Of a stretch of DNA of 64,000 bases, positions 13,514-50,293 are shown piece after piece (within the stretch, counting starts at the first letter, position 1; each line of letters starts with the position of its first letter). A program made the position numbers and the translations under genes. This stretch comes from Amphiscolops sp. MND2022 (lineage: Eukaryota). The stretch covers positions 46,254,001-46,318,000 of the forward strand of contig OZ076409.1 of assembly GCA_964187785.1 (NCBI GenBank), given 5' to 3'. The notes below the pieces were generated by a model. The model was not told the origin of the DNA. It saw only the letters and a program-made list of their open reading frames with translations, and ran no database searches.

Positions 13514-15307
<1,794 letters not shown>

Positions 15308-16650: not shown

Positions 16651-19600
16651 ATCTCCGCAGATCCAATAGGATAAAAGACGCTGAGCGAACTGAAAAATTA
16701 GGACGGGTAGAGTATTTTAAATTTAGTTAGGTTGTTTAGAGATCTCCAGTCCACTCCAACGATTTCTGCGGACTCCTTTCCCGAAGATAAAGAAAGACAA
16801 TGCGTAAGCTAAAGCCCCGGTCAAATGGGAACTCACCGAGAATCAACCATGGTTTTCCTGAACTACAGAGAGGCCAACGAGAGAAGATGCCACTATGGCG
16901 ATTAAGTTCACAGTACCTGTTAACATAAACCTCATTGTACGAACATTCTTTGTTGATGCTACATACGATACAGTCTAGCGATCAGTGTACATGATCATAC
17001 ATAAACTTTGTGTTTGAGATATCTTACTTTTAATTCACCTTCTTATCCAATTCTCCAGTCTATTACATGGCGCAGTCAGCAATCTAGTGGACAACAATTC
17101 AGACCCGAGTACCTCGGAACGATCGGGCCAACCGGCCGCGAATCAGACGATAATGAATCAGACAACAGCAGACCGACTGGAGAAGAACAAAAATAAAATT
17201 CCGATTTTATCGGACAGAGAGACGGACCTGACCAAAATAAACCCACGAATGTGGTGGGAGCAAAATTCTGAGTATATACACCTTACGTATAACCGAAATT
17301 TGGATAAACTGATGGATCAAGGCATCAATCAATTGGACCCACATACAGTGTATCACATCAAGGGAGACGTCATTTGGGCATTAGGTCAAAAGGCCAAACA
17401 CGAAATAATGAGATGCCAGTGGGGCAAAGAACTAAAAGACATTGATCTCCCAGAGCTACTGAAAGTATTAAAGAAGACGGTTATTCCTGCAAAAAATGTA
17501 TTACACAGTCGAGCACAATTCTTCAATATTAAACAAGAAGACAGTGAAACGTTGGATGAATATTGGAAAAGACTCGTGGATATTGAGAGAAAATGAAAAT
17601 TCAACAGCACTACACCAGAAGAAATTATCACTTACAAGTTTGCAGCAACTATCAATGACAAAAAAGCCAGAGACAAATTCATAAACGGACCACTGAAACT
17701 CCAAATGGTCCTCCTTGAAACCATCGAACAAGACAACTACAACCGCAAATACGGAGACAAGAAGACAAATGAAAAACACAGAAAACTTCATCTAGAAAAC
17801 TCGTCAAGCGAACAACAAGTCGCTTACACACACTCAGCACGGAAACGAAAAATAGCTGAAACGGGGGAAAAGAAAATGCCAAGCCGTAACTGTCACGCCT
17901 GTGGTAAATCAAACTGGTCATTGGAACACGTTTGCCCAGCACGCCGAGCACTGTGCAACAACTGCGAGAAAATGGAACATGTTTCCAAAGTGTGTAAATC
18001 CACAACTGTCAGCCGGGTACAAAAAGAACCATCAACGGACAGCAACACCGAGCCATGGCCCGAAATCGACCATATCCAATCCGTCAACGGCATCAATCGG
18101 ATTGATTTCTACAAAGCCATATTATTGGTCCAGGGACAACCAATAGAATTTATTAATGACACTGGTTCTCCGGTAACGATAATACCGCCTATAGTCAATA
18201 CAGCGGAAATACACAAAACCACGAAAAGCTTTGTAGACGTAAACAAAAATCCAATAAAACTCAAGGGCGAGGCCATGGTTGAAGTGAAAACGGAAAAAAG
18301 CAAAGTAACACTTCCCATTTTAATAACCGCAAACAAAAACACCCAACCCTTGCTGTGATTAGATTGGTTGGATAAACTAGAACTCGAGCTACAAGGAAAC
18401 AAAAACACAAATATCATCCGACACATTGAAACAGACGAAAGACGGCAAAAGATCGTAGACGAATACGAGGATCTATTCAAAAACAACCACACGATCAAAG
18501 ACCTAACCATCGACCTTCAATTGGAAAAGGACACAAAGCCGATACAACAGAAGGGACGACCAGTGCCGATACACTTCCAGCAGACAGTCAAGAAAGAGCT
18601 AGAAAAACTAATCGAAAGTGGACATCTAGAAAAAGCAGACAAAACTACGGAAAACTGTTTCGTCTCACCAGCGGTCATAACAATAAAGAAAGATAAACCC
18701 GAAAAATAGCGCTTGATTCGAGAAAAATGAACGAGGCATGTGTCAAGAGGAAACTGGCAATGCCAAGTATAGAAGAGCTAATCAGCAAAATATCGGCAGA
18801 AATTACCCGAAGTAGTGGAGAAATTTGGATGTCAAAGATTGACTTGGACTACGCTTACGGACAGGCAAAATTAACCGTGGAAGCAGCAAAACATTGTGTG
18901 TTTTCGATAATTGGCGGTGATTTCACCGGCCATTACCGATTCAAGAAAGGTTTTAACGGAGTGTCGGATATCCCGACCGTGTCCCAGGAGCACATTGACA
19001 AAGTGCTGGAATTTAAAACACCGGTCTGGTTAGACGACATTATTTGCGTAACCAACGGAACAATCGACGAATACGAACGTGAAGTTCGGGAAGTACTCAC
19101 CAAGTTACAAAACGCTGGATACAGAGCGAGTGAGAGGAAAACCGAATTCTTCAAACAAGAGATAACTTGGCTAGGCTACCACATCAATCAAAGCGGGGTA
19201 AAACCAATAAAAGACAAGACAGAGGCGATAACCAAACTGAAGGCCCCAAAGTACACTAAAGAGCTCAAATCCTTTCTGGGCTTAATACAACACCTGTCAA
19301 AATTCATCAATAAGCTATCCAAGAAGACCGATAGAATGAGAAGACTGCTGAAGAAAGAAACCCGTTGGGATTGGACGCCCGAAGTGAACGAAGATTTCGA
19401 AAACCTGAAAAAAGAGATAACCGAATCACTATGCTTGGCTCGCTTTGACCCGAAGAAGGACAACTATGTGACGACGGATGCTTGCAACACGAGACTTGGA
19501 GCAACCTTGTGGCAAAAAGAGGGAGAAATCTTTATACCAATTGCGTTCGCTAGTTGATTCATCACTGATTGTGAGAGGAAATATGGTTTTGATGAACCAG

Positions 19601-22600
19601 AATTACTAGGAGCGCAGTGGGGGTTCAAATACTTCAGGTATTACGTTTACGGAAAGAGGGTAAATCTGTTAGCGGACCACCAAGCACTACAACCGTTGTT
19701 AAAAAGAAATAGGGCGCACGAACAGTACAGTGCGAGATTAACACGGTGGCTAGACAGATTGAGCCATTTTGATGGAAATGTTCAATATACAGCTGGTAAA
19801 AACATTCCGTTGACGGACTACCTAAGCCGGCATCCAATCGTAAACACCGGTGAGAACGCAGCGGAGAACAACTTTAGCGGTCAAAACGAAGCGGAGTCCG
19901 AAGAAGAGTTCGTAATAAATCAAATACACGGTCTATTCGATTTCATTCAAACAAACGGAAGCAAAAAAAGATTCGCAGAACGAACCAAACCGAAACAAAA
20001 TATCGACCAATCACAGCGCGGCACATGCAAGCGTGAACAAAATAAACAAACTCATTCGCTCGAAGCCTCAATACCATTGAACGGTGTCAATCAAATCTCA
20101 TGGACAAACTTTCAAAAAAATCCACAACGACATCCAATATGGACAAATTCAACGGCATAGATATGCACTTCATTTACAAGAAAAGAGGACACTCACCAGA
20201 TACATACAGACTCTGGGCAGAAAGGAAGAGACTTCTGAAACCCGGAAAGACGAGAGTTGTCGGCAGAGGGACAGATAACGAGAGAATACAGGAGTATCGA
20301 CCTTCACAACAAGTTCGAAAAAGAATTGCGGAACTGAATATACAAATGTATAACAGATTTTTCAGCTACTGCGAGACACTGGGAACGACGCCGCTGAAGG
20401 AGTTTCAACAAAACAATCACGAATCATGGATTGTACAAAATTCGTCCGACACCGAAAGCCAAACAAGCAACGTTAGGCAAGCGAAATGCCCCACAAATGC
20501 CATCAAAAAGTTCCGCAAACACGAGACCGTCAATCTGATCCGGTTGAAACAAACCGTCAAAACAAATACCCTGGATGACGAACACAATGAGCGGACTGAA
20601 GAGACAATCAAAAGAGCAGAAAAGGATTATGCACTCGACCTACTTATGCTAGTAGAAGAAACAGCGAGAGATGTGAAAATTCTAAGCGCTTTTACTGCCA
20701 TCGAAAGAAACCAAACCGAAGAAATTTTTACCCTTACCGAACATATAGACATCACCTGACCACCCGATTCGGCTTACTCTTCTGTAACGACAAAATTGTT
20801 ATACCAGAAGCAATGCGAACAACGATCATCGCCATGGTCCATCAAGGACATCCCTCAGCGACTAAGTAGGATCAGTCAGCCGCAGCGTTCTGGTGGCCCG
20901 GCTTGTACCGGGAAATACGAGAAAAAGCTGAAAATTGCCCCAGCTGCAGGGCTTCAGGTAAGAACTTAACAACACAATTACCGTCAACAGAAAAAAAACA
21001 ATCTAGAAATTTTATCCGAACCGAACCAAGAAATCCAATTGGAATTCGCTGGTCCAAGAAAATCAAAGACTCGCGGCGATGCATATATTTTAGTCGCGGT
21101 CGACCGTTTTAGTAAATGGCCAACGGCTCAAATTTGTAAAAATACCGACTCACGGACAGTTTTAAAATTTTTAACGAAATTTTGCTCAGACAACGGAACA
21201 CCACGGAGTATACGTACCGACAACGGTAGTTGTTTTAAAAGTAACGAATATAAAGATTTTTGTAACCAAGAAAATATAAAGCGCATACGATGCACACCGA
21301 ATTTACATACGGGCACCGGCCAAGTGGAAAGAATAATACGGACAATTAAATCATTAACTAGAGCAAATATGGCGGACGAATTAACATTTGAAGAGAGTGT
21401 TAATTTAGCGATTAAAACGATCAGACAAAACCCGCAGAGTAAATTAAACATGACGCCATTCCAAATGCACTTTGGACGCAAACCACGCACGGCGATAACT
21501 AATTTAATCGGACAGCCAGAATGTCTTCTCTCTAATTGGAAAAAGACTTTGACCAATTACGTTTTAGCACAACACACTGAGCTCCAGATGTTTACAATCA
21601 ACGACTCACAAGGAGAAATGGCCGACTATATGGTCCTTAACTACTCAAAGAAAAGAGCTCGATTGGTAAGCCGGGAATTTAAACAATACCAGTTTTTTTG
21701 AAAAGGAAAACAAACCCAACGCCATGAAATGTAGATTCAAAACCAATAAAATGCTAACAGCTGTAAAAGAAACTAAACACACCGTAACTATGTCCGAAGG
21801 AAAAATAATGCACAAAAAACTAGCGTGAAAACTGATAAAACATCAGCTGCCAAAGAAATCGGAGGGGAAAAGAATACCAACAAACCGCTGCATCAGGTGC
21901 GGAAAGTTCAGTCAAGGAGACTATTGCGATACGCACAAAAAAGTGTATGGAGTCCCAAAGATACAGACCAACCGAGCAGCAGCTACACTCTCCCGACAAT
22001 GCCGCAAAAAAGATCAACCTACGGTGACATCACCGTAACCGCCACAGAGACGGACAGCCACGAAACACAAGATGAATCGCCAGCGGAGGGAAAAGAACAA
22101 CAGACGGACACAACAATCACTGCGACGGAAACACAGTCAACCGAAGAAGAAGACACGCCCGGAACGAACACGCCACTACCATCCACGCCGGTACAGTGCA
22201 GTACTAGCTACGGTACACGCCCGACACAACCGGAAGACAAATTACAGACGCCAATACGCGCAACCGTCAGCGCCGAAGTAGCCCCAAAAAAGGAGATAGC
22301 AAGCCCCGAAAATGGTAAATTAAAAATAATAGAGAAAAAGAAACCAAGAAACCATAAAGTACAATTTGAACCATCAGCGGATCTCCGCAGATCTAATAGG
22401 ATAAAAGACGCTGAGCGAACTGAAAAATTAGGACGGGTAGAGTATTTTAAATTTAGTTAGGTTGTTTAGAGATCTCCAGCCCACTCCAACGATTTCTGCG
22501 GACTCCTTTCCCGAAGATAAAGAAAGACAATGCGTAAGCTAAAGCCCCGGTCAAATGGGAACTCACCGAGAATCAACCATGGTTTTCCTGAACTACAGAG

Positions 22601-22797
22601 GGGGCAACGAGAGAAGATGCCACTATGGCGATTAAGTTAACAGTACCTGTTAACATAAACCTCATTGTACGAACATTCTTTGTTGATGCTACATACGATA
22701 CAGTCTAGCGATCAGTGTACATGATCATACATAAACTTTGTGTTTGAGATATCTTACTTTTAATTCACCTTCTTATCCAATTCTCCAGTCAATTACA
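16651..22797 (+). mobile_element. Ty3/Gypsy LTR retrotransposon (element G2), same family group as G1; several stops and frameshifts
   Basis: 417-bp direct repeats 16651-17067 and 22381-22797 (about 6 differences by eye), ending ATTACA. PBS TGGCGCAGTCAGC at 17068. Gag with Cys/His knuckles, protease NDTGSP, RT WLDD, RNase H TDAC, integrase (VDRFSKW, TDNGSCF, VERII). Confidence 0.93.
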
Positions 22798-22906
22798 ATC
22801 TATTTTCAGTTTTGAGACATCTGAGCTAACAATTCGAAAGAAAAACTTGCCCGAAAAAAAGAGGAACCATAAAAATTTTGACGTCAGTTTCAGACTAAAA
22901 TACAGC

Positions 22907-24870
22907 TGTCGCAGGCTGCCGCCTGCGATGGCACTAAGATCACGACAACAGCGGAAGGGCAAGAGACCGCGACCGGAACCTTACCAATCTACTGAGGAGA
23001 AAACATTTAAAATGCAAACTTCCATATTGTTCCGTTAATTACACTTGTTAATGTTGCTGACTCCATTTATATATATATATATACATATGTTTTGCTAGTA
23101 TTAGTCTGTTAGGGCCAATAACCAAAAGGCTCAAATGATATGTAGTTGTTTGCAAATTTGGAAATGCAGTACAACAACGCAATTGCAGTAATAAATAGAA
23201 GCAGCTAACGAGCGTAAAGGAAACGAGTTCAAGTAGACGTCACTCCAATTCCGGGGACGTCGCTTGAGCTTACTACGATTAGCCAATCACGTGCTGTAAT
23301 TCTTGCTGTACTATTGTTGTATTTGTTAATTGGCCGGTTAAGGCCGCCTGACGAAATTCCACTCTCACTGCTCACTACTTTGGTCAAACGGCCGGTTCCG
23401 GCCGTGAAGCAATAATGAAAAGGAACTAACTTATTACATCGGTACTTCATTAGTAATAATACAATTGTTCTTTCATGTAGTTTAAATGTTCATTGTTGAT
23501 AATATGAAGCTTTGTTTAGTATTTGGCCGAGTAAGGTCCATTGAACTAATATATATTGTTTCAACTGGTACTCTGGTCAAATGGCCGATTGTGGCCATTT
23601 CATGCATATTTGTGTTTTATTGTTCAGTTAACCAGATATTAACCCGGAACTAGCATGAATTCATCTCTGAAACAAATGAAGGTGCTTATGGTACTATATT
23701 ATCTGCGTGATCCAAGCATATGCAAAATAGACGAATAAGGCCATTTTCCTTCACTTCCCTATTGTGCTGTCTGTACTTACGGATTTAGGTCTATTTCGGT
23801 TTCAGCATGAAATGTATTTTCATGAATAGTGGATTCATACCACAGTCCTTATGTGCGGTTATACATTCCATTCTCAGTGTATTATATAATAAATCTTGTG
23901 TCGGCACGTGCCTCCACCTCACTTTGCGTGAGGTATGTAAACAAAGGTATTTGTTGACACTTTGATGTACATGCCTTAGTCGGCAGTTCGTTTGAAGCTA
24001 CTATTTTGACTATATGACCCATAAATGCCATTCCCTAGATGTCCCCGAAGATATGTGAATATCAGGGTTTTCATCAAGGAGCTAATGATCATATGATACT
24101 ATCAACCTAACTAGTTATGTAAGGAATGTGACTGTCATTCCCTAAAAGGTATAAATACTGTTATCCCATTGGGGAAATCATTAATTCCTTCCATTTTACT
24201 CTAGTTAAGTTTAATCTACAAACGGCACCGCTGTTATTTCCGTGTTCATTAATTCATTATTGATTCGGAACTGTTTCAATGCCAACCACTAGAAAGCAAA
24301 AGAAAGCTAGAAAGTCTAGAGGACTTGAGATGTTATCAGATATTGAAAATCTGGATATCATGTTAGGCGAAAACCATTTTGATAGAAATGAGAGAAATGA
24401 AAGTGTGAATAGTAATCAGGCCGGTAGGCCAGAAAGCTTATTTGGAGATGAACTTGGAGATGAGAATGAGAATGGGTTCCCAAACTCAAGAAATAATGGA
24501 CCAAGTCCAAATACCGAATTAGGCCATAATTCAATCAGAGAGTGTCCAAGCGTTGAGATCAATAGATTGTCAAGCGAGTTAAATTCACGTATATCTCGAG
24601 AGATGGACGAAATGATGAATAGTGTCAGTGTTCAGATTCAAAGAGCCATAAATGAGGCAATTAGTAGCCAAATTTTGCCTCAAATCCAAAATGTAGTTAT
24701 GGCCGGATCGGGACAATTGACCAAAGAGAGATGGAACGTTCCGGCCGAGAGACCGGAAGGATATTCTGAAGCACTGCAAAACTCAGAACTTAGGAACAAT
24801 TCTAAAAATAAACAGACCAACGACCGTCCCAAAGACGGAGTCACAAGCACGAACTCCCGTGCTTACGACA
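22907..24870 (+). repeat. 5' LTR of G3 (1964 bp)
   Basis: Near-identical to 37454-39419 (about 5 substitutions plus one TA-unit indel by eye); imperfect terminal inverted repeat TGTCGCAGGC / GCTTACGACA. Confidence 0.97.
24150..24182 (+). promoter_or_regulatory. Candidate LTR core promoter (TATA box and initiator)
   Basis: TATAAATA at 24150-24157 and TCATT at 24178, about 100 nt upstream of the gag ATG. Confidence 0.5.
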
Positions 24871-25997
24871 TGGTGACAGGAGAAAACGAATCTCCAATCG
24901 AAGTTCCTGAGTTTCTCACGGGACGAATCTCATCCAGAAACCATCTCGACAGGTCCTATGAGGATATTAACCTTGACACGACGATCCCAGCGCAAGAGAG
25001 AAATGCTCCGGCTGCTCAAACTGACCCTATTACTCGACTAGCAGATGTCTTGACAACGATGCAGAACAGGCCGACAGCCCAACAACTCACTATACGCCCA
25101 GTCAATTCAAACACAATGACTTTTGATGGCAAGAGTGAAAAATTCGAGCTGTTTGAGGACCTGTTCCACACGATGATCAAGATGCAACCGGAAATGACGG
25201 AACAGATGAAAATAAATCACTTCCACTCACTGCTGAGGAAGAATGCTCTCCAAACCTTCCGGAACATCAGCTCGAGCAATAGACAGACTTTAGAGGACGT
25301 ATTGGTAATATTCAGACGAAAATACGTCAAACCAGAATCACAGGCAACTGCCAAACATAAATGGCACCGTCTAGTTTTCGATCCTAACACGATGAAACTG
25401 CCAGATTTCCTTGAAGAATTAAATCAAGGGGCAGGAAAAGCATTCGGGGATCACGCACAGAAAATGATTGACAGTTTGCTCTACGCAAAACTGCCACCAA
25501 AACTGAAGCGGTCTGTAAACATGGCCAGACTCGAAAACGGCTCGTATGACGAAATAGTTGCTCATTTAGAGAGAGAGTTAGAACTAAATGCTCTTGAGGA
25601 ATCAGACGACCTACCAATGGCCACAATGACCTCCTCGACTACAAAACCTAAAACTCCTCTGTCCACAGGGCAACTGTCCGATATCACTTGCAATTACTGC
25701 AAGGAGAAGGGCCATATGGTCAAAGACTGTGAAAAATTGAAGAAGAAAAAGGAAAAAGATGCCCAACAAGGCAAACAAACTCAGAAAAAGACGTATCCGG
25801 AGTGTGGCACTTGTGGTAAAAAGAACCACCCGGAAGAAAGATGTTGGCAAGGTGCTGGTGCGCATCTCAAACCCAAACGCACCAGATCAGGTGACGCTAA
25901 TGACGGTAAACCCAATTCAAAGGCGCAGAAACCACAAAACAAACCAACATCTTCCAACTCACAGACCTCATCTTCCAATGATGAGTCAAAAAACTAA
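24279..25997 (+). CDS. gag: Gag of G3 (572 aa), starting inside the 5' LTR
   Basis: Capsid-like region (TFDGKSEKFELFE...) and two CCHC knuckles (CNYCKEKGHMVKDC, CGTCGKKNHPEERC); ends in the heptamer A AAA AAC followed by TAA. Confidence 0.93.
   Translation: MPTTRKQKKARKSRGLEMLSDIENLDIMLGENHFDRNERNESVNSNQAGRPESLFGDELGDENENGFPNSRNNGPSPNTELGHNSIRECPSVEINRLSSELNSRISREMDEMMNSVSVQIQRAINEAISSQILPQIQNVVMAGSGQLTKERWNVPAERPEGYSEALQNSELRNNSKNKQTNDRPKDGVTSTNSRAYDMVTGENESPIEVPEFLTGRISSRNHLDRSYEDINLDTTIPAQERNAPAAQTDPITRLADVLTTMQNRPTAQQLTIRPVNSNTMTFDGKSEKFELFEDLFHTMIKMQPEMTEQMKINHFHSLLRKNALQTFRNISSSNRQTLEDVLVIFRRKYVKPESQATAKHKWHRLVFDPNTMKLPDFLEELNQGAGKAFGDHAQKMIDSLLYAKLPPKLKRSVNMARLENGSYDEIVAHLERELELNALEESDDLPMATMTSSTTKPKTPLSTGQLSDITCNYCKEKGHMVKDCEKLKKKKEKDAQQGKQTQKKTYPECGTCGKKNHPEERCWQGAGAHLKPKRTRSGDANDGKPNSKAQKPQNKPTSSNSQTSSSNDESKN
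24871..24882 (+). promoter_or_regulatory. Primer binding site of G3 (tRNA-Leu-like)
   Basis: TGGTGACAGGAG abuts the LTR end; 11/12 match to the complement of a typical metazoan tRNA-Leu 3' end (TGGTGTCAGGAG), recalled from knowledge. Confidence 0.6.
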
Positions 25998-28900
25998 CTT
26001 CGCCACGACTCCAATACAACCAACTAATATCTGTCCGACAATACATCAGATCGGACCCTCCAACGCAAACTTTCCACCAATACAACCAACAATTGATGGG
26101 CTATCCCTCTGTTGTCTGGCAGCAGCAGATGGAAAAAGCTACCATTATTACTTACAATAATACCCATTTGTTCCAAAAACCAATTCCTGTATGGGATCCT
26201 GATTACACATCTGCTTTCAATAGCCGATTCAGGCCCATTCCCTTGGTAGACGATTACAACCCTACCTACATAGACCCCGATTATGGACGAGATCCCTATT
26301 GGGACACGGAACTCTACAACCAAGATCTGCTACAATTCCAATACGTCATTGATGATATCGAACTCTAAAATAAATCAGCCCATGAAAATCCTCCAATCAC
26401 CCACAACAAGAAAACTAGAGCATTGATTGAAACCTGGCAAATGAATGATGGCACAAGCCATCCGGTGTTCCCAAATCCTCTGGGGACCGAGAATACTGAA
26501 AACAGCGGTGAAATCACACCACAATCATTATTAGATGAAAAACAATTCCAAAATATACTCATCACCAGAGATGGTGAACCAGACTGTATACCCCTGTCAA
26601 CCAACATCAACCTCAAATGCAAGAAACGCATGCTTTATTTCCCAATGGACTTTGGGGAATTGACCATAGACGGACTTATCGACACTGGTGCATTATCCAG
26701 TGCAATCCCAGAGATGGACCTCCGGAAAATCAGACTCTTATCGCCACAATCAGTAATCCGGGAGGGTCCGCCTCCAAACTTCCAGATAATGGTCGCAAAT
26801 GGGCAACTAGAGACTCCCAAGAGTACAATAGAGCTCAAATTCGAAGTTGGTGACATAGAGTTCCATGAAATTTTTATAGTAATGGAACACCTAACAGGAC
26901 CGATTATAGGACTGATGTTTCTACAGAGAAACCATACAGTACTGGACATGAGACAAGGAATACTGAACTTTCCGTTCTTTTCAATGCAGCTTAAAACAGC
27001 TGATCATAAATACTCGAACGTGCTAGAGCCAATTCTAAACCCTACTGAAATAACCATGCCGCCAAACGACAGAGTCCTGATTAGGACCAATTCCTTATTA
27101 TACCCTGAAAACACCGTCACAGGAATTTTGCAACCGAGCGACCTTCTCCATGAAGAAGGCGACATCACATTCTGTCCAGCCTTGGTCACCTTGAATGACG
27201 GCAATATATTGATACCAGTGAATAACTTCACAGACCACCCTTACAAGCTCAAAAAGGGACTCCATATTGCTAGTTTTTCAGTTATGACGCCAGAACAAAT
27301 GAAATATGTCAAACCGGTAGACCCGGCATCAACCTGGCATTTGTTGCAAAACGACCAAGAGCAAGCAGCCCATTACGTCAGTAGCCTGATCAAGACGAAC
27401 AGAAATTCACAAAACCCCGAAAACTACTGGTTCCCAACTCCGGAAAATCCAGGGAATCCAGAAGAACACACTCCAATCCAGAAAAGAATCCTCCGCGAGC
27501 TACAAGCCCTACAGGACCTAGAATCCCTTGATCCCACGAAAGACGAGGAATCTAGGGAAAAATTCTTAAGAAATTTTGATTGGAAAGACTCCACCCTAAC
27601 CCTGGAAGAGAAAACCAAAATTGAAGAATTGCTAGTGGAATTTCACGACATTTTTGCGAGACACAGATTTGATATAGGCATGAATGAGGAATTCAAGGTG
27701 AAATTGACACCTAAGGACGATTCCCCAGCCTATAGCCAAAGCCTCCCTGCGCCAATAAACTTGAAAGAGGACATTTTAGTCGAATTAGCCATGCTCCACA
27801 AATATGGCATAATAACTACTTTACCGTTCTCGAAATACGCCAGCCCAATATTCGCCCAAAAGAAACCAAATGGGAAGCTACGACTTTTGGTTGACTTGAG
27901 GAAAATCAACAACCTTATCTCGGATGATTATATCAACAATAATCACCCTGTTAGCACCTTGGTTGATGCTGCCCAACACTTGGCAGGCAAAAAACTGTTC
28001 TGTAAATTAGACTGTTCGCAGGCATACCACTGCCTACCAATGGCCGACCAACGCTCAATTGAAATGTTGGCTTTCAATTTTGCCAGTCGTACATTCGCGT
28101 ACAGACGCTTGGCACAAGGCCTTAGTCGGTCACTATCCGCATTCTCGAGTTTCATGAGGGAATACCTCGACAAAGTCATTAAAGCGGATCAGTGCGCCCA
28201 GTATGTGGACGATATCGGCATCGCAGCCAATGATGTTGAACACCTCATAATGAACCTGAGAGCAACATTCAAATGCATTCAGGAAGCAGGCCTTAAGCTG
28301 ACAATGCACAAATGTCACTTTGGTGCAAAAGAAATTGATTTTCTCGGACGGACTATTACCCCGCAAGGCGTCAAACCTCAGAAACAGAACGTGCAAAACT
28401 TCCTGGAAAAGACTAAATTCCCAAAGTCGAAAAAGGCTTTGCAGCGCTACTTGGGATTCTTGAACTACTACAGAAATTATGTCCCAAGACTATCTGAACG
28501 CCTTGCTCCATTCTACAAGATGCTCAAAAGTGACGAAAAGGTCCTAGTATCGAAAGAATTAGTCCAACAATTCGAAGAAATCAACAAAGCACTTGACAAA
28601 TGTTGCGATTTGGCATTACAGCAACCCATTCCGAACAAACAAATCGCACTAATGACTGATGCAAGTTTTGGTGCAGCTGGATATGCGGTCTTAATAGAAG
28701 ACGATCCAAACCAGAAATTCACATCTCTCCGAAAATCCTACGCACCGGTGGCCTACGGATCAAAAACCTTCACCCCAGCCCAGATCAAAATGTCAATATA
28801 TGCCAAGGAATTTCTGGCAATTTACTTTGCATTCAAAGAATTTGGACATATATTCTGGGGTGCGCCCAAACCGGTCATTATCCTTACCGACAACAAAGCC

Positions 28901-31225
28901 GTCACGAGATTTTTCCAAACGAAAATAATACCCCCAGCCCTATGGAATGCATGCGATTATGTGATTCAGTTCAATTTTGTCATAGCGCATATTCCGGGAG
29001 CACAGAACACAGCAGCTGACTATTTGTCCCGATTGGAGGCAGATCCGAAGGATAAATTAGTCATGAAAATCCGTGAAGACGTGCAAACTTTACCCATTGA
29101 GATAAATGTTCAATCTGCGGGGGTATCACAGGAAGAACAAATATTCTATACGAATGATGATGACGAGACAGAGGAACAGTATTGGGCAAGAAAAGAAGCA
29201 ATCAGGAAAAATCCAATGACTGATGAGCCCACTGTTACCATAGAAACTCTGTCAACCAATTTGGTCAAACAACAACCAGATATCCAAGTCCGATTAAAGA
29301 AAACAAACCAGATAATCATCGAGCAGTCCAAAGATACAGTATTGCAACAATTGAAGGCAAAGCTCCTTCATGAAGACTATTCAGAAAACATACTGCAACA
29401 GGATGCCCGATATAGACACTACGCAAATAATCTGGAACGAATTGTACTCAAGGACGAAATCCTGACGAGGCAATATTTTGATGAAACAGGGAATGTTAAA
29501 TACCATCAAATTTTGCTACCACAACACCTACTTCGGGAATTGCTCCACTCCCTTCACGGGACAGCGCATAAACATCCCGGGATTTCAAAAATGTTGCAGG
29601 AAATCAGACAAAGGTATTACTACCCTAGCATGGCTAAACACGTCAAAAAGTGGGTAGAAGGGTGTGAACAATGTGCCAGAGACAAGAGAGTCCCTAACGC
29701 AACGATCACACCTGAGCTGCTCAACTTGCCCGAATGGGACCTTGGACCTGAAGACGCCATGCAGATTGACCTGTTACCGAATCTTCCCCCAAGTGGAGGG
29801 TATGAAAATGTCCTAACGGCAATCGACGTTTTCTCCAGATATTTATTCGCTTATCCCCTTACAGACGCATCAGCGATCAATGTGGCAAAAGCGCTCATTG
29901 ACATAATGACCAAGCACGCATATCTGCCAACGACTCTTATTACTGACAAGGGTACTGCATTCACTTCTACGATTATTGCGGAGGTTACGCAAATTTTGGG
30001 CATTACACTCAAATGTGCAACGACAAAGCACCCGCAAACAATTGGGAAATTAGAGCGGACCCATGTCTCATTAAAGACAAACCTCAAAATGGCATGTGGG
30101 GAATACCGCCGACAATGGCATAAATATCTGCCATTAGCAGTACTTAATCATAATACGAGTTATCATGCCAGTATCGGTTGTGAGCCAACGAGAGTATTCC
30201 ATGGCAGAATTCCCTACAACATCCTGGATCACAAGCTTGGAAATAATCCAAACGAAAAGATCAGCCCTACAACCGAATTTGCTGACAAATTCCAAAACCG
30301 GAAAAAAATCCTAATTGACAAAACGAAGCAGAACATTATGCAGTCGTATATCAAGTACAAAGAATATTACGACCGCAAAGCAAAAGCTGCTCCATTGAAA
30401 GAGAATGATTACTGTTTCGTCCTACAGCCGGAAGCGGATCATCAAGGATCAAAAATTCCATTCCGCGATTACCGTTGGGTTGGACCATTTGTAGTCCAAA
30501 AGGTTTTGCCAAATGAAAACTACATAATACGAAGAATCAATACGAACAAAACTCAAATTTTGCATCGCATTCGACTTAAAAAGTTTATTCCCAATCAACC
30601 GCTTGAGGACAATTTCCGAGAACAACGTCTGCAGCCAGACGAAGAAATTGTCATTCCGCAAGACGACTTATACGTCATAACGTGGGAAACAGACTTCGGC
30701 GAACAGCTAGTTACACGAGGCAACGAACCTATTCCGACTAGCTTGCCGAACGGCGAACGGCCGAGTACGGCAGAAAACACAAATGACGCAAACGAGAATG
30801 ACGTGGATTACATAATCACGCGAGAAGGATTAAACAACGACAACGCGGTACACAGTCGGAATGGCCGCTTAAGTCACGACGCAACGACAAGTAATGACGT
30901 CACCGAAGAAGCATCGAATGACGAACCTGATTGGCCGAACGAGGCCGGTTTACCGAAAGCTCACGAAACACATTCACCGAATACAGCAAATGACCTCAAA
31001 AAAGACAAAATTATTCCAGAAAGCCCAAAAGACAAGGAAATTTTCCCATATGAAAATTTGCGAACCGAAACTGATGCACAAAATTCTCCAAGAACGGGGG
31101 ATGATATTATCGTGCCCGAAATATCCGAAAACGATGCTAGAAATGAAAGCCTGAGCCCTAGAGGAGGGAAATATAATCTCAGGCCTAACCCTAACCCAAA
31201 CTACTCAGAAGACTTCAGATACTAA
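25988..31225 (+). CDS. pol: Pol of G3 (PR, dUTPase-like insert, RT, RNase H, integrase) in the -1 frame; one in-frame TAA at 26366-26368
   Basis: 1600-codon ORF 26423-31225 with LIDTGA (PR), YVDD (RT), MTDAS (RH), H..H/CEQC and IDLL/TDKG/LERTH (IN). The same frame is open back to the gag slippery site except for one TAA. Confidence 0.95.
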
Positions 31226-31459
31226 GAATTGAATTTCTTCCCGAAAATGGGAATTCTCTTCTTTTCATTCTTTTTATCTTTTTTCAGTCCCATGCAGCAG
31301 TATTTTTTGAATAAATAATGGGACATTTGAATGATCCCTTACAAGAAAATAAATACGGGATCAGGAAATCAAGGCAACAACGAACAAAACGAAAATAAAT
31401 ACGAAACAGAAAATGAACAAAAGATACAGTCTACAAGTACATAAATACATATGTACATA

Positions 31460-34400
31460 TTAGTTCTTAGAGGATCCCTGGACAAGTTTCTTGGAGGCGG
31501 ATGAGACAGTAGAACTACTGCTACCCATTCTTTTCCGTTGGGTCCGGGAAGGAAGCTTTACGGCAGAGTCATCCGGCACGGAAGAGGCAATTCCTTTCTC
31601 CAGACGAACAGACCGTGGGGGGGAAACAGCAGTGACGACCTTATAGGAGGCAAGAAGGCTCTTGTAGATTTTGGACCTCCCGAACTCATCCACAAAGGTC
31701 CATGGATCATAGTCAGGGGAGAAAGCGGAACGCTCGAAGGAAGAACTGAGAGCTGAAAACTTTTCTAAATTAGCATCAGAGCAACAATGTGGAATGGAAT
31801 CAGGCACGCAAGAAAGGTAACTCTGACAGGGCTCTATCAGGTCAGCAAAACGGCCTCGGTGTCCAGAAGTGTTAACACTCCCGAAAGATACTGGAGGATA
31901 TTGGGGACTTTGTCCTGTCAAACACAAGCAGCACAGCTTGAAGAGATGGAAAATGTGCTCATGAGTTTGAAAAAACTCGAGCTGCATCAGGAAGTCTATC
32001 AGGTCGGTGGAATTTTCCTTGAAATCGAAATCTGGAGGATAATTGACTCGCAGGTGATCTAACAAAGCCAAATACTCATCTCGACAGACGTTCTCATTCT
32101 CACTGGAAACCCAAGAGCGAAGCTGGAAGGTCGAGTACAACACCTCAAAGTGACGGAGTCCGACCTCACTTGGTCTCTTGAAGAGGACAAAAGGGTCAAA
32201 GGCGGCTAACCCCTTGATCACCTCGGAACTCAGGCCGGCTTGGTTGAGGACCTGCCTGATCAGGTACTGAATGAACTGTAGTCCCTCTTTGACGAAACTG
32301 CTGGTTGTTTCTGCAGCTGTCTTGTCAATGGCGGCCTTCTCGGACTTCTTGTTCAGATGAACAACATCGGCACACTGTTTGCTGGCAGTAGCTATCCGAT
32401 TTGTCAATCGGTGCCGGATAAGGAACTCTTCCTCGCTGATGAATTTTCCTTCGCTCACGTTGAAATTGAGGAGAAGGAACCACGAATTCTCGAGAGGGAT
32501 GGTTTCCGGCAAGTAGCATCTGGCACATAGCTTGGAGACGAAACGGCAGACTTCTCCACAGAGGAAAAATGACGCATCTCGTCGGCCTAGCAGATTGACA
32601 ACGAAACTGGAAACATCTGGAAAATACAACGGACAAGATCATGAAAGGAACAAAACGTTCACATGAACCCATACCAATATGCCTATTGTGCTAGTAGCCC
32701 AAGGAATCAAGGATCAAGGACCGTTCTGATAATGTCTTAAAGTACCGATATGGACATGTAGCGGTATACTCACAATCACTGATTATGCGTTGGAAGAGTT
32801 CCAACTTGACGACGAAGAAAGAGTCGCAGATAAGAGACCACTCGAAGCTCTGCACTTGATTGTGGAACCCCTGCATTCCTTGGTGTGGAGTATGTGACGT
32901 CAGGTACTGCCGGACTGCTTTCCAATGTTTCAGGAGTTCCCGGCAGAGGTTGGGTAAACTCGGTAAGTCCAGTTTGCAGGTATCAATGGCCTAAATGAAC
33001 CCGAATTGTCTTTTGTCCGAACCTACCCCCCTAACCTTTTACGCCTCATGTTTGAACTTAATATACTAACTCGTGCTAGTTCAGGGGATTGCAGGACCCA
33101 GTCTTCATCGGTAGCTGCTCCAAGTGAAACCATGAGGCACTTCAGAACAGAGAAGAAGTCTATTCTGCCAAACACACTGAAAGTGGGTTTGTGCATCATC
33201 TTCTGAGCTGCAGGTGCTCGAAGCGAAAGCAACTCTGGACAGCCCGAGGGAAGAAAGCATTGTAGTCGATAGTCCGAATCAGCTCCACTGGACATCCGGA
33301 ACAAGCGACTATATCGGCCTTGGTGGACACTACTGAGAGAAGTCGAGAGAGGGACCCCAACTCCCCAGTAAGATCAGAGGAAGGAAGCCCACTTCGGCAC
33401 ACGTAGATTCGGCAGAGGGTGTCGCCCTTCCAGAATTTGACAGACATGAGTCTGTTCACTCCCTGATCCTCAAACTCGATGGCAAAGTGCTGTGTGGTAG
33501 CAATCTGATTTGCTAAATCGTTCATTGCACAATTGAAAATATGCTGGAAGATGGCCTGAAAAGGAAAAGGAGAATTACGAAATGTGTGGAGGACTTTGGT
33601 TTCCCACGAGCAGTGCGCAACCCAATAGAGAACTTACCGAAATTCTTTCTTCGCCCCAATCGAAGTCGCAGTAGCTGGTCTGGTAATTGGTCAAAGAGCC
33701 TATTTGGGACCACAATTTGCGGAGCATTCCAATATCTCCAAGTTGCTGTATGAAGTTCCCAATGAGTTGAATCTGCGTCTTGGTTCTTGCTTCAGGGGTG
33801 ACGAATGTGGTGGTTGTTCCTTTTATGAAATCATCATAGAAAGGGAAGCGTTCTCCGATGTCCACCAGCTCAACGTGCATAAAGTGGCGCATCTCCTTAG
33901 CCAACTCAATCTCTGAGAGGATCTTCCCATTGCGGCCTCTCACTCGATGTTGCACCTTTCCGGACACGGGGTGGACACTTTTGAGGTGCTCGTAGCGCCA
34001 TCTTTGATCTCGTCGGAGGTGCTTCTCCGTCCTGTGGTGTCGCAGGATTTCCAAAGTGCCCTTCGTCTTCACGGAGATATTCTTTTTGCATAAATGGCAC
34101 CATACCATATACGGATTGTGAAGCGGATCTGCTGGTCCGGAAATGAACGAGCGCGTCCATCCGATTTTGGAGAAAAACTCCTCTTTCATAGGGACACCTC
34201 GAGTCTGCTTTCGTTGCTTCCGTCTTGGCGCTTTACCCGAACTCGAAACTAAAGGCGGGGCAGGAGAAGTTTGAGTCCGTAACTCGGAAAGAGTGGCATC
34301 AAGGCTTGACTGTTCTGCTGATTCGAAGCCTGCTTGGGAGGGATCATTTTGAGTAGTCCCGCAAGAAGTTGAAGCAGGTCTGAAAGGCTCCTTGAAGGCT

Positions 34401-35590
34401 TGTGAGATGAGAGCCATTTCTTCGGAACTATCTGTGTCATTGGAGGAGTCCAGCCCTCTGTCCTCTTGTCCTGAACTTGTTCCGACAGACGTATCAGTTC
34501 CTGACTCAGGAAAATTTTCAGAGCGTAGGCTGCCATCAGAATCACTATGAAGTCCAGGTCCGGGAGTTTGGGCTCTTGGCCTGATTCGGAAATGGTCAGT
34601 TCGAGAACTGGAAGTGACCGGCGCTCCGCGAACTGCCCCAATCACCATCTGTTCCATGGCAGTGAAGGACATCTTCAGGGTTTCATCTGTAAGAACCCTC
34701 AAAAGATGATACACTTGTGGCTCAGTAAAAGCCACTGTTCTATGGCCGAGAGGGAAATTGATGGTGGTAGCATCCTGATCAAAGTACTGTTTTAAAATGG
34801 CCCGGCTGCGACCGGAGAGCTCCCTGACGCCAGAATCTTGCCCTGCAGACGTTGATGTTGACGGACGCATGTTATCCGGACGATGAATAGGAGTGTCAAC
34901 TGACGACTCCCCTGCAGTTTCTGCCACATTTCCTACTGGCTGGAAACTGTATAGAGCTGGTCCACTTGCCTGGCTGGATGTATCACCGGCTTCCTCAGTC
35001 CCAGTCACGTCATCCAAATATACTACATCTGTGACTCCAGTCGGCAATTTAGGGGCATCACATACAGATGAACCTTCATCAGTCTCATGTTGAAGGAATG
35101 ATGCTGCTGACATGTTGGCAGAAGTTCCGCAAGTTGTCAACAATTCTGGCAATTCCGTCTGAGTGGAGGGAGCAATCGTGAGACCGGCTTCTAGCTGTGA
35201 TAAATCCAGCCCTGCAGATTCACTGGGCAAGTCCTTGGTTGGAGTGCTAGTTTGGAAGAGCAATGTAGAAGTTTGGGGTTCATTCCCAACAGTAGGCGAA
35301 CCTTCAGGGGCACTCTCTTCAACCTCCTGTTCCCCGATTTCAGAACTCTTGGCAATCTGTCTCTCTTCCTGTTCCTGGGCCCGTGCAAGAAGCAGAACTT
35401 TCTCATCAGCGTATGCCGTGACATCGAAATCACTATCAACACTGAAAGGAGAGGGAGTGACTGTATCCTGGGCTCCTTCTGTTACCGCTGCTGTTGACAT
35501 GACAATGGTGGTGGATGAAGTTGGAGAATACGGAGCAATTGGATCGGGACTAGACCTTGGCATAGTTATTGGAATAGGACGTCGGGGCAT
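31460..35590 (-). pseudogene. Antisense spliced accessory gene inside G3: ~1300-aa BED-zinc-finger, hAT-transposase-like protein; exons 35590-33638, 33555-33071, 32990-32675, 32616-31460; one frameshift (~33198) and one TAG (32693-32691)
   Basis: GT-AG introns of 82, 80 and 58 bp (GTAAGT..TTTCAG, GTTAGT..ATTTAG, GTATGG..TTCCAG) join the ORFs in matching phase. WCHLCKKNI...ILRHHRTEKH is a BED-like finger. Downstream segments resemble hAT transposase. Confidence 0.75.
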
Positions 35591-36753
35591 CTCGGTGAAA
35601 TTGTCTGAAGAAGTGGTGTTTCGAATCTGTGATTCGTCAATATTCTGGTTTTCTAAACAGAATGAGATGAAATTTGGCGGTGAGCTTCCTTGAAAAAAAT
35701 CCAATTTACCGCGTTAGAAAACTTCCGGAAGTGCTATGAAAATTCGAATGAAATGTGTTATCACGCATTTATTGATGGAAACAGGAAGCATTTTGTGAAC
35801 GAATTTAGCCCTGATCAAGTTAAATTTGAGTTCAAAAAAGAAACAAACCAACCTTCAGTTGAAGACATTCTGAGCTGGGACGAAACGGGAACTGCTCCAA
35901 TCGGATTGCCGCCACGAAGGAAATTGGCCGGACTCGGCTTGAAGGGGAGAAACAGAGATACTCTGAAGAGAAGACTGACTGGAGGGATTGGAGACAGAAA
36001 GGATAGTTTGACAATGAAGACTGACCGGATGAATATGGACGAGGAAATGCAATTAAAATAAAAGGAATTGGATTGGAATTCAAAATAAAGAATTGAAGAG
36101 TTGGAGTTCGTGGCTGAAGATTATTACCAGACTAATATTATGGATTATCTACATATTTATTCTGTACATGGAGTCTGCCAGCGAAGTGTACAATGGATTT
36201 TGTTATTTACAGCTTATTTAGTTAAAGGGCCGGTTATGGCCGTTTGCCCTGTTTTGTTTCGCCGTTTTGTCCAGTTACCCTAGTTACCCTTAGCTAGAAT
36301 TTTCGCCATCTTGAATTATTTAGATTTATTATTTTCGCCATTTTTATTATTTAATTTCACAATTTATCGAAGCTTGACGCTGATTGGTTGAAGCCATTTT
36401 GAAAGAATTCCGCGTCGCATGCTGTTAATTGCTATCAGGCAGACTGTTAATTACCCACTTGAAACGGGTGAAGATGATATTTACAACTCAAGCGTCGTTA
36501 ACACCTCTCAGAGTGATGGTGCTGATAGAGGGTAAACAGTGAGTTATCAAAGGATGCCGAATAATTATAAAATTCCATTCAGGAATGTTTACGTCGGATC
36601 AGGACGATTTACCAATAGCTCAACCGCCAAAAACGAATTGCCGGGAAAAGGCCCGACTTGGCCAAATTCTTGAACTGGTGAATTCATTCCACTTTGAAAC
36701 TTTAAGCAAACCAGTCAACTCCTCTGCTTAGCAAGATTGCGAAAAAACTAATA

Positions 36754-37542
36754 ATGCAAAGATATAACTTAACCAAGAAGCCCTTCGACTTTGAAGAAGA
36801 GGATTCAGAAAGTTCAACAAATTCGATAATCTACATATCCAGCGACAGTGAGGATGAGGCTTCAAGCGATTGGGACTCAGACTGGTCTACTGATACGGAG
36901 GCTATAATAGACAGGATTGAACGGGAAGTTAAAGCGACACCAATTCCTATTGCCGGACGGGGAATGACAATGGAAAGCTCAGATGACGAAAGGGCGGCAG
37001 GACCCAGCTACATTCAGTCTGTTCCGCCTTCTACCCCGAAATTGGGATTTGAGTACTTCAACAGGGAAATGTGTCTAGCGCCGTCCAAAAGGCAGAAGAA
37101 GACGAGGGTTGAGCTCTGCACTACTGTTTTGCCTGTTTTGGAATCTCCATTATCTCCTCCCGACCATGAGAGAGGACCAAGTATTGATACTCCTCCTGTA
37201 CAGTCGACTTCAGGGACTTTCTACGCCTCGTATCATGTGCAAAATATCAAGCCTTACCAGAACGTCAGTGAAAGTCTACACACGGGCTGTATGGTATGTG
37301 GTAAATCGAGAGAGCAGATAAAAGAGGAAAAGATCAACTGGTATATGGAGAGATCGACGCCCAAGAGTGAACCAGCCTATATCACCGCATTACGACGAGA
37401 AGCATACTCTAATGGTTTAAATGCAGGTAGTCTACTTTTCCTAACACCCGCAGTGTCGCAGGCTGCCGCCTGCGATGGCACTAAGATCACGACAACAGCG
37501 GAAGGGCAAGAGACCGCGACCGGAACCTTACCAATCTACTGA
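36754..37542 (+). CDS. Accessory ORF of G3, 262 aa, acidic N-terminus, unknown function; last ~29 codons lie in the 3' LTR
   Basis: ATG-initiated uninterrupted ORF with IIYISSDSEDE (SIM-like), PSKRQKKTR (NLS-like) and CMVC; AATAAA downstream at ~37739. Confidence 0.7.
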   Translation: MQRYNLTKKPFDFEEEDSESSTNSIIYISSDSEDEASSDWDSDWSTDTEAIIDRIEREVKATPIPIAGRGMTMESSDDERAAGPSYIQSVPPSTPKLGFEYFNREMCLAPSKRQKKTRVELCTTVLPVLESPLSPPDHERGPSIDTPPVQSTSGTFYASYHVQNIKPYQNVSESLHTGCMVCGKSREQIKEEKINWYMERSTPKSEPAYITALRREAYSNGLNAGSLLFLTPAVSQAAACDGTKITTTAEGQETATGTLPIY

Positions 37543-39419
37543 GGAGAAAACATTTAAAATGCAAACTTCCATATTGTTCCGTTAATTACACTTGTTAATG
37601 TTGCTGACTCCATTTATATATATATATATATACATATGTTTTGCTAGTATTAGTCTGTTAGGGCCAATAACCAAAAGGCTCAAATGATATGTAGTTGTTT
37701 GCAAATTTGGAAATGCAGTACAACAACGCAATTGCAGTAATAAATAGAAGCAGCTAACGAGCGTAAAGGAAACGAGTTCAAGTAGACGTCACTCCAATTC
37801 CGGGGACGTCGCTTGAGCTTACTACGATTAGCCAATCACGTGCTGTAATTCTTGCTGTACTATTGTTGTATTTGTTAATTGGCCGGTTAAGGCCGCCTGA
37901 CGAAATTCCACTCTCACTGCTCACTACTTTGGTCAAACGGCCGGTTCCGGCCGTGAAGCAATAATGAAAAGGAACTAACTTATTACATCGGTACTTCATT
38001 AGTAATAATACAATTGTTCTTTCATGTAGTTTAAATGTTCATTGTTGATAATATGAAGCTTTGTTTAGTATTTGGCCGAGTAAGGTCCATTGAACTAATA
38101 TATATTGTTTCAACTGGTACTCTGGTCAAATGGCCGATTGTGGCCATTTCATGCATATTTGTGTTTTATTGTTCAGTTAACCAGATATTAACCCGGAACT
38201 AGCATGAATTCATCTCTGAAACAAATGAAGGTGCTTATGGTACTATATTATCTGCGTGATCCAAGCATATGCAAAATAGACGAATAAGGCCATTTTCCTT
38301 CACTTCCCTATTGTGCTGTCTGTACTTACGGATTTAGGCCTATTTCGGTTTCAGCATGAAATGTATTTTCATGAATAGTGGATTCATACCACAGTCCTTA
38401 TGTGCGGTTATACATTCCATTCTCAGTGTGTTATATAATAAATCTTGTGTCGGCACGTGCCTCCACCTCACTTTGCGTGAGGTATGTAAACAAAGGTATT
38501 TGTTGACACTTTGATGTACATGCCTTAGTCGGCAGTTCGTTTGAAGCTACTATTTTGACTATATGACCCATAAATGCCATTCCCTAGATGTCCCCGAAGA
38601 TATGTGAATATCAGGGTTTTCATCATGGAGCTAATGATCATATGATACTATCAACCTAACTAGTTATGTAAGGAATGTGACTGTCATTCCCTAAAAGGTA
38701 TAAATACTGTTATCCCATTGGGGAAATCATTAATTCCTTCCATTTTACTCTAGTTAAGTTTAATCTACAAACGGCACCGCTGTTATTTCCGTGTTGATTA
38801 ATTCATTATTGATTCGGAACTGTTTCAATGCCAACCACTAGAAAGCAAAAGAAAGCTAGAAAGTCTAGAGGACTTGAGATGTTATCAGATATTGAAAATC
38901 TGGATATCATGTTAGGCGAAAACCATTTTGATAGAAATGAGAGAAATGAAAGTGTGAATAGTAATCAGGCCGGTAGGCCAGAAAGCTTATTTGGAGATGA
39001 ACTTGGAGATGAGAATGAGAATGGGTTCCCAAACTCAAGAAATAATGGACCAAGTCCAAATACCGAATTAGGCCATAATTCAATCAGAGAGTGTCCAAGC
39101 GTTGAGATCAATAGATTGTCAAGCGAGTTAAATTCACGTATATCTCGAGAGATGGACGAAATGATGAATAGTGTCAGTGTTCAGATTCAAAGAGCCATAA
39201 ATGAGGCAATTAGTAGCCAAATTTTGCCTCAAATCCAAAATGTAGTTATGGCCGGATCGGGACAATTGACCAAAGAGAGATGGAACGTTCCGGCCGAGAG
39301 ACCGGAAGGATATTCCGAAGCACTGCAAAACTCAGAACTTAGGAACAATTCTAAAAATAAACAGACCAACGACCGTCCCAAAGACGGAGTCACAAGCACG
39401 AACTCCCGTGCTTACGACA
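37454..39419 (+). repeat. 3' LTR of G3 (1966 bp); contains a copy of the gag N-terminal ORF (38828-39448) that terminates in flanking DNA
   Basis: Direct repeat of 22907-24870, followed by the TSD ACAGC. Confidence 0.97.
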
Positions 39420-40100
39420 ACAGCCTACGAAACTCGTTTATAATTTAAGAAACACAGGACTCCGTATTTGGTCTCGGTTCTGAGATCTTTACAAAACCAC
39501 TTTAAACAAAAACATGGTTTCAATATAACTATCGGTTCCGCGAAAGTTGCCTGATAACGTTGAAATTCTTCCACATGTCTCGACAATCGAGGAAAAAAAA
39601 TCTTTCAGGAAAATGATTGAAACTTTTAGTATTTGTAAACGCCTATTTCGCGGTGAAAGAATTTCGCAAAATAACGAAATTGACAGTAATAAACGCAAAC
39701 CATGCTGCCGCGTCGGTTAGTGTCTTTTTGGGTCATTTTCAAGTGTTCCTGGTAGTGAAATTTAAAATTAGCGAAAACCCTTATAAGGCTCAAGCAAAAC
39801 GTTTCTCAGTATTTTTATATCGTTAGATTTGCGTAGGTTTCAGCGGCAACATGGATGGTCTGCGATGAAAAAGTTTCCAGAAAGTTTCCAGGCTAAGCTC
39901 GAAGCCTCAAAACTCAGCTTAAAAACCAACACTTTGCCAATAACAGAAAACTCATTTTCAACCTCATATTAATTAGACTAACATATGAAAATAGACTCGT
40001 TTGCCTGGTTTTCTGAACAATTCTTTAAATTTGTAATATTGGATTCAGACCTCATATCAATGACACATTCAATTATACACTGTATAAATATAATTCCAAA

Positions 40101-50200: not shown

Positions 50201-50293
50201 CAGTTGAGATGCTAGATAATTGGATGAGTTCGTGAATTTGATGTCGTGCAGCTTGAATTGATTCTGCAGGGTCTGCTGTTTCGGGTTGATCAT
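44262..50293 (-). pseudogene. gag-pol: Bel/Pao gag-pol polyprotein of B2, broken by a stop at 48281-48283 and a frameshift near 47700
   Basis: KLPPIQIPKFDGD gag motif, triple Cys/His knuckles, ALIDFGS protease, RT (ADIEGMFMQI; YMDN instead of YMDD), RH (VFTDAS), IN (SDNGKNF, PWERMI). Confidence 0.92.

Follow-up and report, generated by a model that had tools for sequence, protein, structure and literature searches.

Where does the Gag protein of a retrotransposon begin when its reading frame extends back into the long terminal repeat (LTR)? This question is raised by an element at positions 22907-39419 of the window, that is, the whole 64-kb stretch of contig OZ076409.1 (positions 46,254,001 to 46,318,000) that was analysed in the 1.07-Gb genome of Amphiscolops sp. 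MND2022. LTRs are normally treated as non-coding, but in this element and its relatives the repeat contains 103-216 codons of the main structural protein. The initial annotation had reported that the ATG at 24279 opens a frame whose first ~197 codons are LTR sequence, and this proved correct, as a 572-aa open reading frame (ORF) was found of which 592 nt (197 1/3 codons) belong to the LTR, the nearest upstream in-frame stop being at 24261. Approximately the N-terminal third of Gag is repeat-encoded, and the frame is continuous through the LTR end and the primer binding site (PBS). The basic, acidic/Asn-rich and predicted helical features that had been ascribed to the peptide are all present in this frame. 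If Gag indeed starts here, annotation that seeks gag only after the PBS truncates these proteins.

The gag frame inside the LTR

The LTR bounds were established by direct-repeat comparison. The two LTRs start with TGT, finish with ACA and are 99.6% identical (5 substitutions and one 2-nt indel), and the 5-bp sequence ACAGC is present on both flanks of the element, as a 5-bp target-site duplication (TSD) is in most relatives. Furthermore, the same final base ends the LTR in 16 of 16 3' or solo copies. The junction reads TAC GAC A/TG GTG ACA GGA, and the attachment (att) end and the PBS are protein-coding, as had been claimed; the last A of the LTR and the TG of the PBS form an in-frame ATG at 24870 because the CA end abuts a TGG primer site. 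The 12-nt PBS can pair along its whole length with the 3' end of a host tRNA-Leu(CAG) plus CCA. The corresponding tRNA 3'-end pattern has 999 matches in the genome (control, 0), and ARAGORN identified tRNA-Leu(CAG) at two of the eight tested loci, while the sequence of L064 fits. Nearly all of the 999 matches are on one strand, and a tandem array of tRNA-Leu(CAG)-like 3' ends, with a spacing of mostly 180-500 nt, extends from G000:C8:35587099 onward.

The frame is kept in the closest relatives. Among the 30 best DNA-matched 5' copies, the gag ATG is located 592 nt (27 copies) or 586 nt (3 copies) before the LTR end in every case, and the frame is open across the junction in 29, which is more than chance. 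The exact junction 14-mer occurs in 7,527 copies genome-wide, as opposed to 1 for the control. In a sample consisting of the first 70 junctions by position on contig 1, the Gag frame continues upstream without a stop for 100 codons or more in 51 cases, as compared to 0/70 and 0/70 for the other two frames. A recognisable family start is present at 39 of the junctions, and these elements fall into 9 clusters at E<1e-20 and 6 at E<1e-4, with 103 to 216 LTR codons per element. Judged by eye, most clusters follow a common plan, in which a basic start is succeeded by an acidic linker, then by an amphipathic helix and a further linker.

That the junction coincides with the LTR end was verified by locating the second LTR. 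It does so in subfamilies B and C, where five of the six fetched elements were informative and one of the six (L093-L096) was left out as it had no family start on the examined strand, and in 6/6 elements from a family whose Gag is 42% identical. LTR bounds were obtained in the same way for 9 of 10 further elements, 8 of which end exactly at the junction; no second LTR was found within 20 kb of L130. Two distant Gags, P0132 and P0152, had no match in this genome at strict cut-offs. The layout is common to at least 9 sequence clusters in this genome and is clade-wide, which, together with the coding U3 boundary described below, goes beyond the initial annotation.

The LTR codons evolve as protein-coding sequence. 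The ratio of nonsynonymous to synonymous substitution rates (dN/dS) of codons 1-197 was calculated pairwise for the 38 loci, out of 54, with an intact and unique frame. It is 0.14 (bootstrap interval 0.09-0.22) in one subfamily and 0.11 and 0.08 in the two others, and the codon-level conservation that had been proposed as a check is thereby found. In six of seven further families the ratio is 0.11-0.29, the seventh being saturated. Between subfamilies, the proportion of synonymous differences (pS) in the LTR codons is saturated (0.72-0.73), with a proportion of nonsynonymous differences (pN) of 0.11 in the helix. In a set of 120 listed homologs, which are 78-92% identical, identity is 89% at residues 1-20, 40-45% at 41-80, 80-85% at 101-140 and 33-39% at 161-200, and 114 of the 120 start with MPTTRK. 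This profile rises and falls as that of a protein does. Taken with the dN/dS values, the LTR segment behaves as a genuine coding part of Gag.

The most confident part of the whole AlphaFold2 model is a continuous 53-residue helix (block predicted local distance difference test, pLDDT, 81-94) with disorder on either side, and it is also among the best-conserved parts of the LTR segment. The helix would likely be a coil for oligomerisation, that is, self-association at the matrix position. Pfam returned no convincing family for the LTR peptide, only one sub-threshold YpjP match, the best Atlas score was 0.75, and the fold search yielded nothing at E<=0.001. A simple heptad score missed the helix of the window element, suggesting that it is a plain helix or has a repeat other than heptads. 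Further downstream, in codons 199-270 (24873-25088), pS is about half of that in the capsid region (0.037 vs 0.084; 0.35 vs 0.71), which hints at an RNA signal, for example for packaging, within the coding sequence after the PBS.

A probable single long Gag and its alternatives

It is very probable that the full-length RNA starts ~100 nt upstream of the ATG at 24279 and is translated from its first AUG into a single, LTR-initiated Gag of 572 aa. A TATA box is found 116-172 nt before the gag ATG in 23 of the 39 family-start elements, and the 100 nt before this ATG contain 1 out-of-frame ATG across the 39 elements, as compared to 34 expected (the lowest of 300 shuffles gave 18). Such an ATG-poor stretch is as expected of a scanned leader in which the LTR ATG is the first AUG, and the ATG-free leader and the TATA box together place transcription upstream of the gag ATG. 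In this scheme, a TATA-driven start near 24180 would be followed by cap-dependent scanning to the ATG, R (repeat) plus U5 (unique 5') would comprise ~690 nt, and the minus-strand strong-stop DNA of that length would copy the coding segment. If true, R plus U5 are ~0.7 kb and coding, and strong-stop DNA is unusually long. Gag-Pol would be produced by a -1 shift at the AAAAAAC ahead of the gag stop, a heptamer present in 28 of 30 loci. The ATG at 24870 most likely serves as an internal codon. A TGA within the PBS closes the +1 frame, which leaves only two possible phases, one of which is used by all families; this fits a single origin, perhaps a junction start in the ancestor that was later extended into U5, without being proof of it.

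An AATTCA-like motif followed by a pyrimidine-rich stretch (24225-24260) is found repeatedly in different families, with 31 matches at -50 to -21 in the 39 elements. The motif may act as an initiator, or else as a non-canonical poly(A) signal, and the R/U5 border may lie at it, just before the gag ATG. As a splice acceptor the motif was rejected, since an AG does not occur consistently upstream of the ATG. A-tailed retrocopies whose end lies directly downstream of the motif numbered 0, an uninformative result. The AATAAA at 24807, which had been put forward as a candidate poly(A) signal, did not hold up, as 24 of the 30 copies of subfamily A have it but A(A/T)TAAA within 120 nt of the LTR end is found in 0/13, 0/9 and 0/8 copies of three other groups, and AATAAA occurs within 100 nt of the LTR end in only 2 of the 39 elements. 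Folding of the window's junction RNA gives a z of -3.7; a conserved RNA structure was nonetheless rejected, z being below -2 in only 2 of 23 relatives, no more than in control windows. The leader folds no better than its shuffles (z 0.2).

Several points weigh against a single long Gag translated from the LTR. No TATA box lies in the -200 to -100 window in 16 of the 39 elements, no conserved poly(A) signal was found among the groups and elements compared, and 19 of the 70 sampled junctions lack an open frame of 100 codons upstream, most of them apparently decayed. The dN/dS values come from intact frames only (38/54 loci; MGNKR 11/16), and their intervals are too narrow as the copies are related, although the direction, which indicates purifying selection, is not in doubt despite these optimistic intervals. 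The helix and the LTR peptide have no relative in Pfam, Atlas or the fold search, so the role given to the helix is a guess. Finally, the transcription start site, the R/U5 boundary and translation are all read from sequence, and the borders of U3 (unique 3'), R and U5 need RNA data according to an earlier study (PMC3601003).

The initial annotation had considered two Gag isoforms possible, and only the long, LTR-initiated one finds support. A short Gag would have to be made from the junction ATG, besides the long form, by way of a further promoter, through splicing or from an internal entry site, and it would retain the capsid and the zinc knuckle. All sampled families have the junction ATG in frame with gag, with a G at +4 in 39/39 and a purine at -3 in 27/39 elements, but the A, the T, the G and the +4 G are all fixed by att and PBS (CA plus TGG), therefore this invariance says nothing on translation. 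Leaky scanning is implausible with 16 ATGs between 24279 and 24870 in the window, and the medians of 3 in-frame and 5 out-of-frame ATGs before the junction in the 39 elements rule against it as well. Moreover, a transcript starting beside the PBS could not serve as a packaged genome, and no internal promoter was seen. In Ty1, a truncated Gag, p22, is known from an internal transcript, and by this analogy a short Gag would need a transcript of its own (PMC8458377). On balance, the second isoform is improbable.

It is very unlikely that the LTR frame instead makes a small protein of its own, from 3' or solo LTRs or by splicing, its continuity with gag being incidental. Consistent with such independence, the LTR part evolves faster than the capsid part and recombines apart from it, the LTR peptides form 6 clusters without mutual alignment at E<1e-4, and 3' and solo copies retain the frame. 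However, there is no stop before the LTR end, which would give the 3' and solo products (16 copies) random tails of 2-56 codons, and the phase with gag has been maintained through length changes from 103 to 216 codons. The last alternative, in which the open frame arose by chance in a single young family and spread through recent amplification, could draw on the near identity of the window LTRs and of the closest copies (96-100%), but it is refuted by the junction counts (51/70 vs 0/70), by the dN/dS values in subfamilies and further families and by the low helix pN at saturated synonymous sites between subfamilies.

The LTR as a probable unit of inheritance and its U3 boundary

A Gag that begins in the LTR would have consequences for how its parts are inherited. 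Between the window element and L097, identity is ~63-86% (gapped) across the LTR, 96-100% within a few bases after the LTR end, 92% on average over pol and ~65-70% after 31471. Similarly, pS between subfamilies A and B is 0.73 in the LTR codons vs 0.11 in the capsid region, and the trees of 21 copies differ, with a subfamily A stem of 0.57 for the LTR part vs 0.006 for the rest of gag. The LTR-coded third appears to have been exchanged en bloc between subfamilies. Reverse transcription restores both LTRs from the ends of the RNA, and for this reason a single template switch where pol ends would suffice to give the contrast between LTR and capsid. Faster evolution of the LTR contributes to this contrast and tells against exchange, but the size of the difference at synonymous sites points to recombination. 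As the LTR is regenerated as a unit, the coding segment would share its descent with the promoter and the 3' accessory region, not with the capsid domain, and the fixed phase of the att/PBS junction would keep recombinant Gags in frame. If true, the N-terminal third of Gag follows the genealogy of the promoter and not that of the capsid, and the match between LTR and Gag is measurable in thousands of natural copies. Separately, the LTR/PBS junctions of L024 and L025 (G000:C3:80083869 and 80097963) are 14.1 kb apart, and the two are probably tandem elements sharing an LTR, which differs from that of the window upstream of ~24210 and matches it downstream; a crossover during first-strand transfer near the putative R start is a possible origin of this pattern.

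The opposite end of the repeat is coding as well. The 262-aa ORF that enters U3 of the 3' LTR is conserved in subfamilies B and C (pN 0.25, pS 0.83-0.85, that is, under purifying selection), and in a distant family its counterpart crosses into the LTR in the same phase. A polypurine tract abutting the 3' LTR is a general hallmark of LTR elements that does not separate superfamilies. None was found in 10 of 10 elements of the two families (37434-37453 in the window), the last 20 nt containing 5-10 purines, but the tract is clear in the more distant relative L193/L222 and partial in L210. The L222 and L210 tracts suggest a graded decay. Both LTR boundaries are coding in these two families, so that the families with a second gene extending into the other LTR end number at least two.

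The 3' LTR carries the 197 codons a second time, in an ORF (38828-39448) that continues for 9 codons into host DNA. Likewise, in the 16 3' or solo copies (29 of 30 loci parsed) the stopless LTR frame extends 2-56 codons into host DNA. If the long-Gag reading is right, every solo or 3' LTR supplies both a promoter and a start codon but lacks its own stop, and host fusion proteins could arise from it. It is conceivable, if rather unlikely, that the LTR is a swappable cassette of a promoter and a Gag assembly domain, with coding sequence at either end and joined to other capsids by recombination, whose thousands of 3' and solo copies make coil fragments with host tails that poison capsid assembly or seed host fusions. 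With equally modest expectations, such fragments might be regarded as an N-terminal counterpart of the copy-number control by p22 in Ty1.

Classification, known relatives and surrounding features

The coordinates of the features are collected in Table 1. In the gag ORF, Pfam detected DUF1759 (E 1.1e-5) and zf-CCHC (E 0.003), while the capsid matches of the fold search with Gag were weak, none reaching E<=0.001. Pfam places the pol domains in the order protease (PR), reverse transcriptase (RT), RNase H (RH) and integrase (IN), and the best solved relatives of the RT are of the foamy-virus type, Ty3 and one other RT (E 1e-29 to 4e-24). The LTR ends and TSD, the pol order, a gag with capsid-like and CCHC parts and the adjoining PBS are all those of Ty3/gypsy elements (Metaviridae type). 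Copia elements have the order PR-IN-RT-RH, and this Ty1/copia (Pseudoviridae) arrangement was not found. The element is filed as gypsy-type by domain order and is non-canonical at the polypurine tract. The window copy contains an in-frame stop (26366-26368) 126 codons into the -1 (pol) frame; in 22 of 30 close loci the pol frame is open to the end of the locus, and most relatives are without the window's stop.

Table 1. Features of the element and their positions in the window
Feature	Position	Strand	Basis or remark
5' TSD, ACAGC	22902..22906	+	Sequence; repeated at 39420-39424
5' LTR, 1964 nt, TG...CA	22907..24870	+	Direct-repeat comparison; LTR end also fixed by 16 3'/solo copies
Candidate TATA box, TATAAA	24150..24155	+	129 nt before gag ATG; putative start near 24180
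Putative 5' leader, ATG-free, AATTCA-like motif	24180..24278	+	ATG depletion; motif 20-50 nt before ATG
LTR-encoded Gag N-terminal segment, 197 codons	24279..24870	+	Basic start, disordered linker, helix, linker
gag ORF, 572 aa, ending in AAAAAAC slippery site	24279..25997	+	Capsid-like helices ~288-438, CCHC knuckle 470-484
Predicted continuous helix, Gag residues 90-142 (53 residues)	24546..24704	+	AlphaFold2
AATAAA, probably incidental (Lys-Asn-Lys codons)	24807..24812	+	Not conserved
PBS, 12 nt, tRNA-Leu(CAG) complement	24871..24882	+	Abuts LTR; with the LTR's last A reads Met-Val-Thr-Gly
pol frame, -1 relative to gag, PR-RT-RH-IN	25985..31225	+	Pfam and ORF reading; in-frame stop 26366-26368
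Antisense open frames, several segments, probable spliced accessory gene	31460..35713	-	ORF reading
262-aa ORF with CxxC motif, 29 codons into U3 of 3' LTR	36754..37542	+	No polypurine tract at boundary
3' LTR, 1966 nt	37454..39419	+	Direct-repeat comparison; carries second copy of the 197 codons

Among known systems, Ty1 of Saccharomyces cerevisiae is the closest in layout, with a 53-nt untranslated region (UTR), a GAG start within the 5' LTR and a PBS at RNA nt 95-104, inside the coding sequence of GAG (PMC5454406). However, by arithmetic only ~14 codons precede the PBS in Ty1 as compared to 103-216 here, which bears out the earlier remark that ~200 LTR codons are unusual; in addition, its LTR is 334 bp (1.1-2.0 kb here) and its primer is tRNA-iMet, in contrast to tRNA-Leu(CAG) (PMC5454406). 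Here, a whole predicted structural element lies within the LTR. In having the gag start in the LTR and the PBS in coding sequence, the layout is Ty1-like, and judging by it the element would work like Ty1 without being a copia element. HIV (human immunodeficiency virus) nef and MMTV (mouse mammary tumour virus) sag are LTR ORFs in U3 and are separate accessory genes. They share with this element protein-coding selection on the LTR, and the 36754-37542 ORF enters U3 as nef does, but here the R/U5 side codes for part of the main structural protein.

Bivalve gypsy elements of the Steamer type have an LTR with the terminal sequence ...ACA that directly adjoins a 12-nt Leu-tRNA PBS, TGGTGTCAGAAG, and this join likewise gives rise to an ATG (PMC8905726). 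The reference Steamer LTR is 177 bp and its polypurine tract is recognisable (PMC8905726), neither of which applies here, and the window element is not filed in the Steamer clade. The pol domain order, the frameshifted gag-pol and the sequence of capsid then nucleocapsid are shared with Ty3, in which the capsid comprises residues 1-207 of Gag3, whereas ~280 residues precede the capsid helices here, 197 of them LTR-coded (PMC6525542). Ogre and Burro are similar in combining kilobase LTRs with extra ORFs in gypsy elements, but their extra ORFs are described as internal, with the long repeats treated as non-coding (PMC6431247). Since tRNA fragments repress through PBS sites in 5' UTRs (PMC12853362), it might be speculated that a coding PBS escapes such repression. 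No report of at least 100 gag codons in an LTR was found in the literature searched, the incomplete coverage of which makes this a weak negative. The layout as such is known from Ty1, and its scale, the selection and the block exchange were, as far as this limited search goes, not found in print.

Additional coding sequence is present elsewhere in the element and in the window. The antisense frames comprise 712, 116 and 392 codons from stop to stop and probably represent one spliced gene; Pfam gave no match for the two segments scanned. Approximately 1 kb separates the start of this gene from the sense ORF at 36754, which might accommodate a two-way promoter. A neighbouring gypsy-type element (16651-22797) has 417-nt LTRs that are 98.6% identical and a PBS adjoining the LTR, and its ORF 21999-22460 ends within its own 3' LTR. 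As judged by eye from ORF translations, BEL/Pao-like fragments or elements are located at 24-1354, 44262-50293 and 53619-56832, and 14903-15307 (minus strand) resembles the first exon of a cathepsin-type protease.

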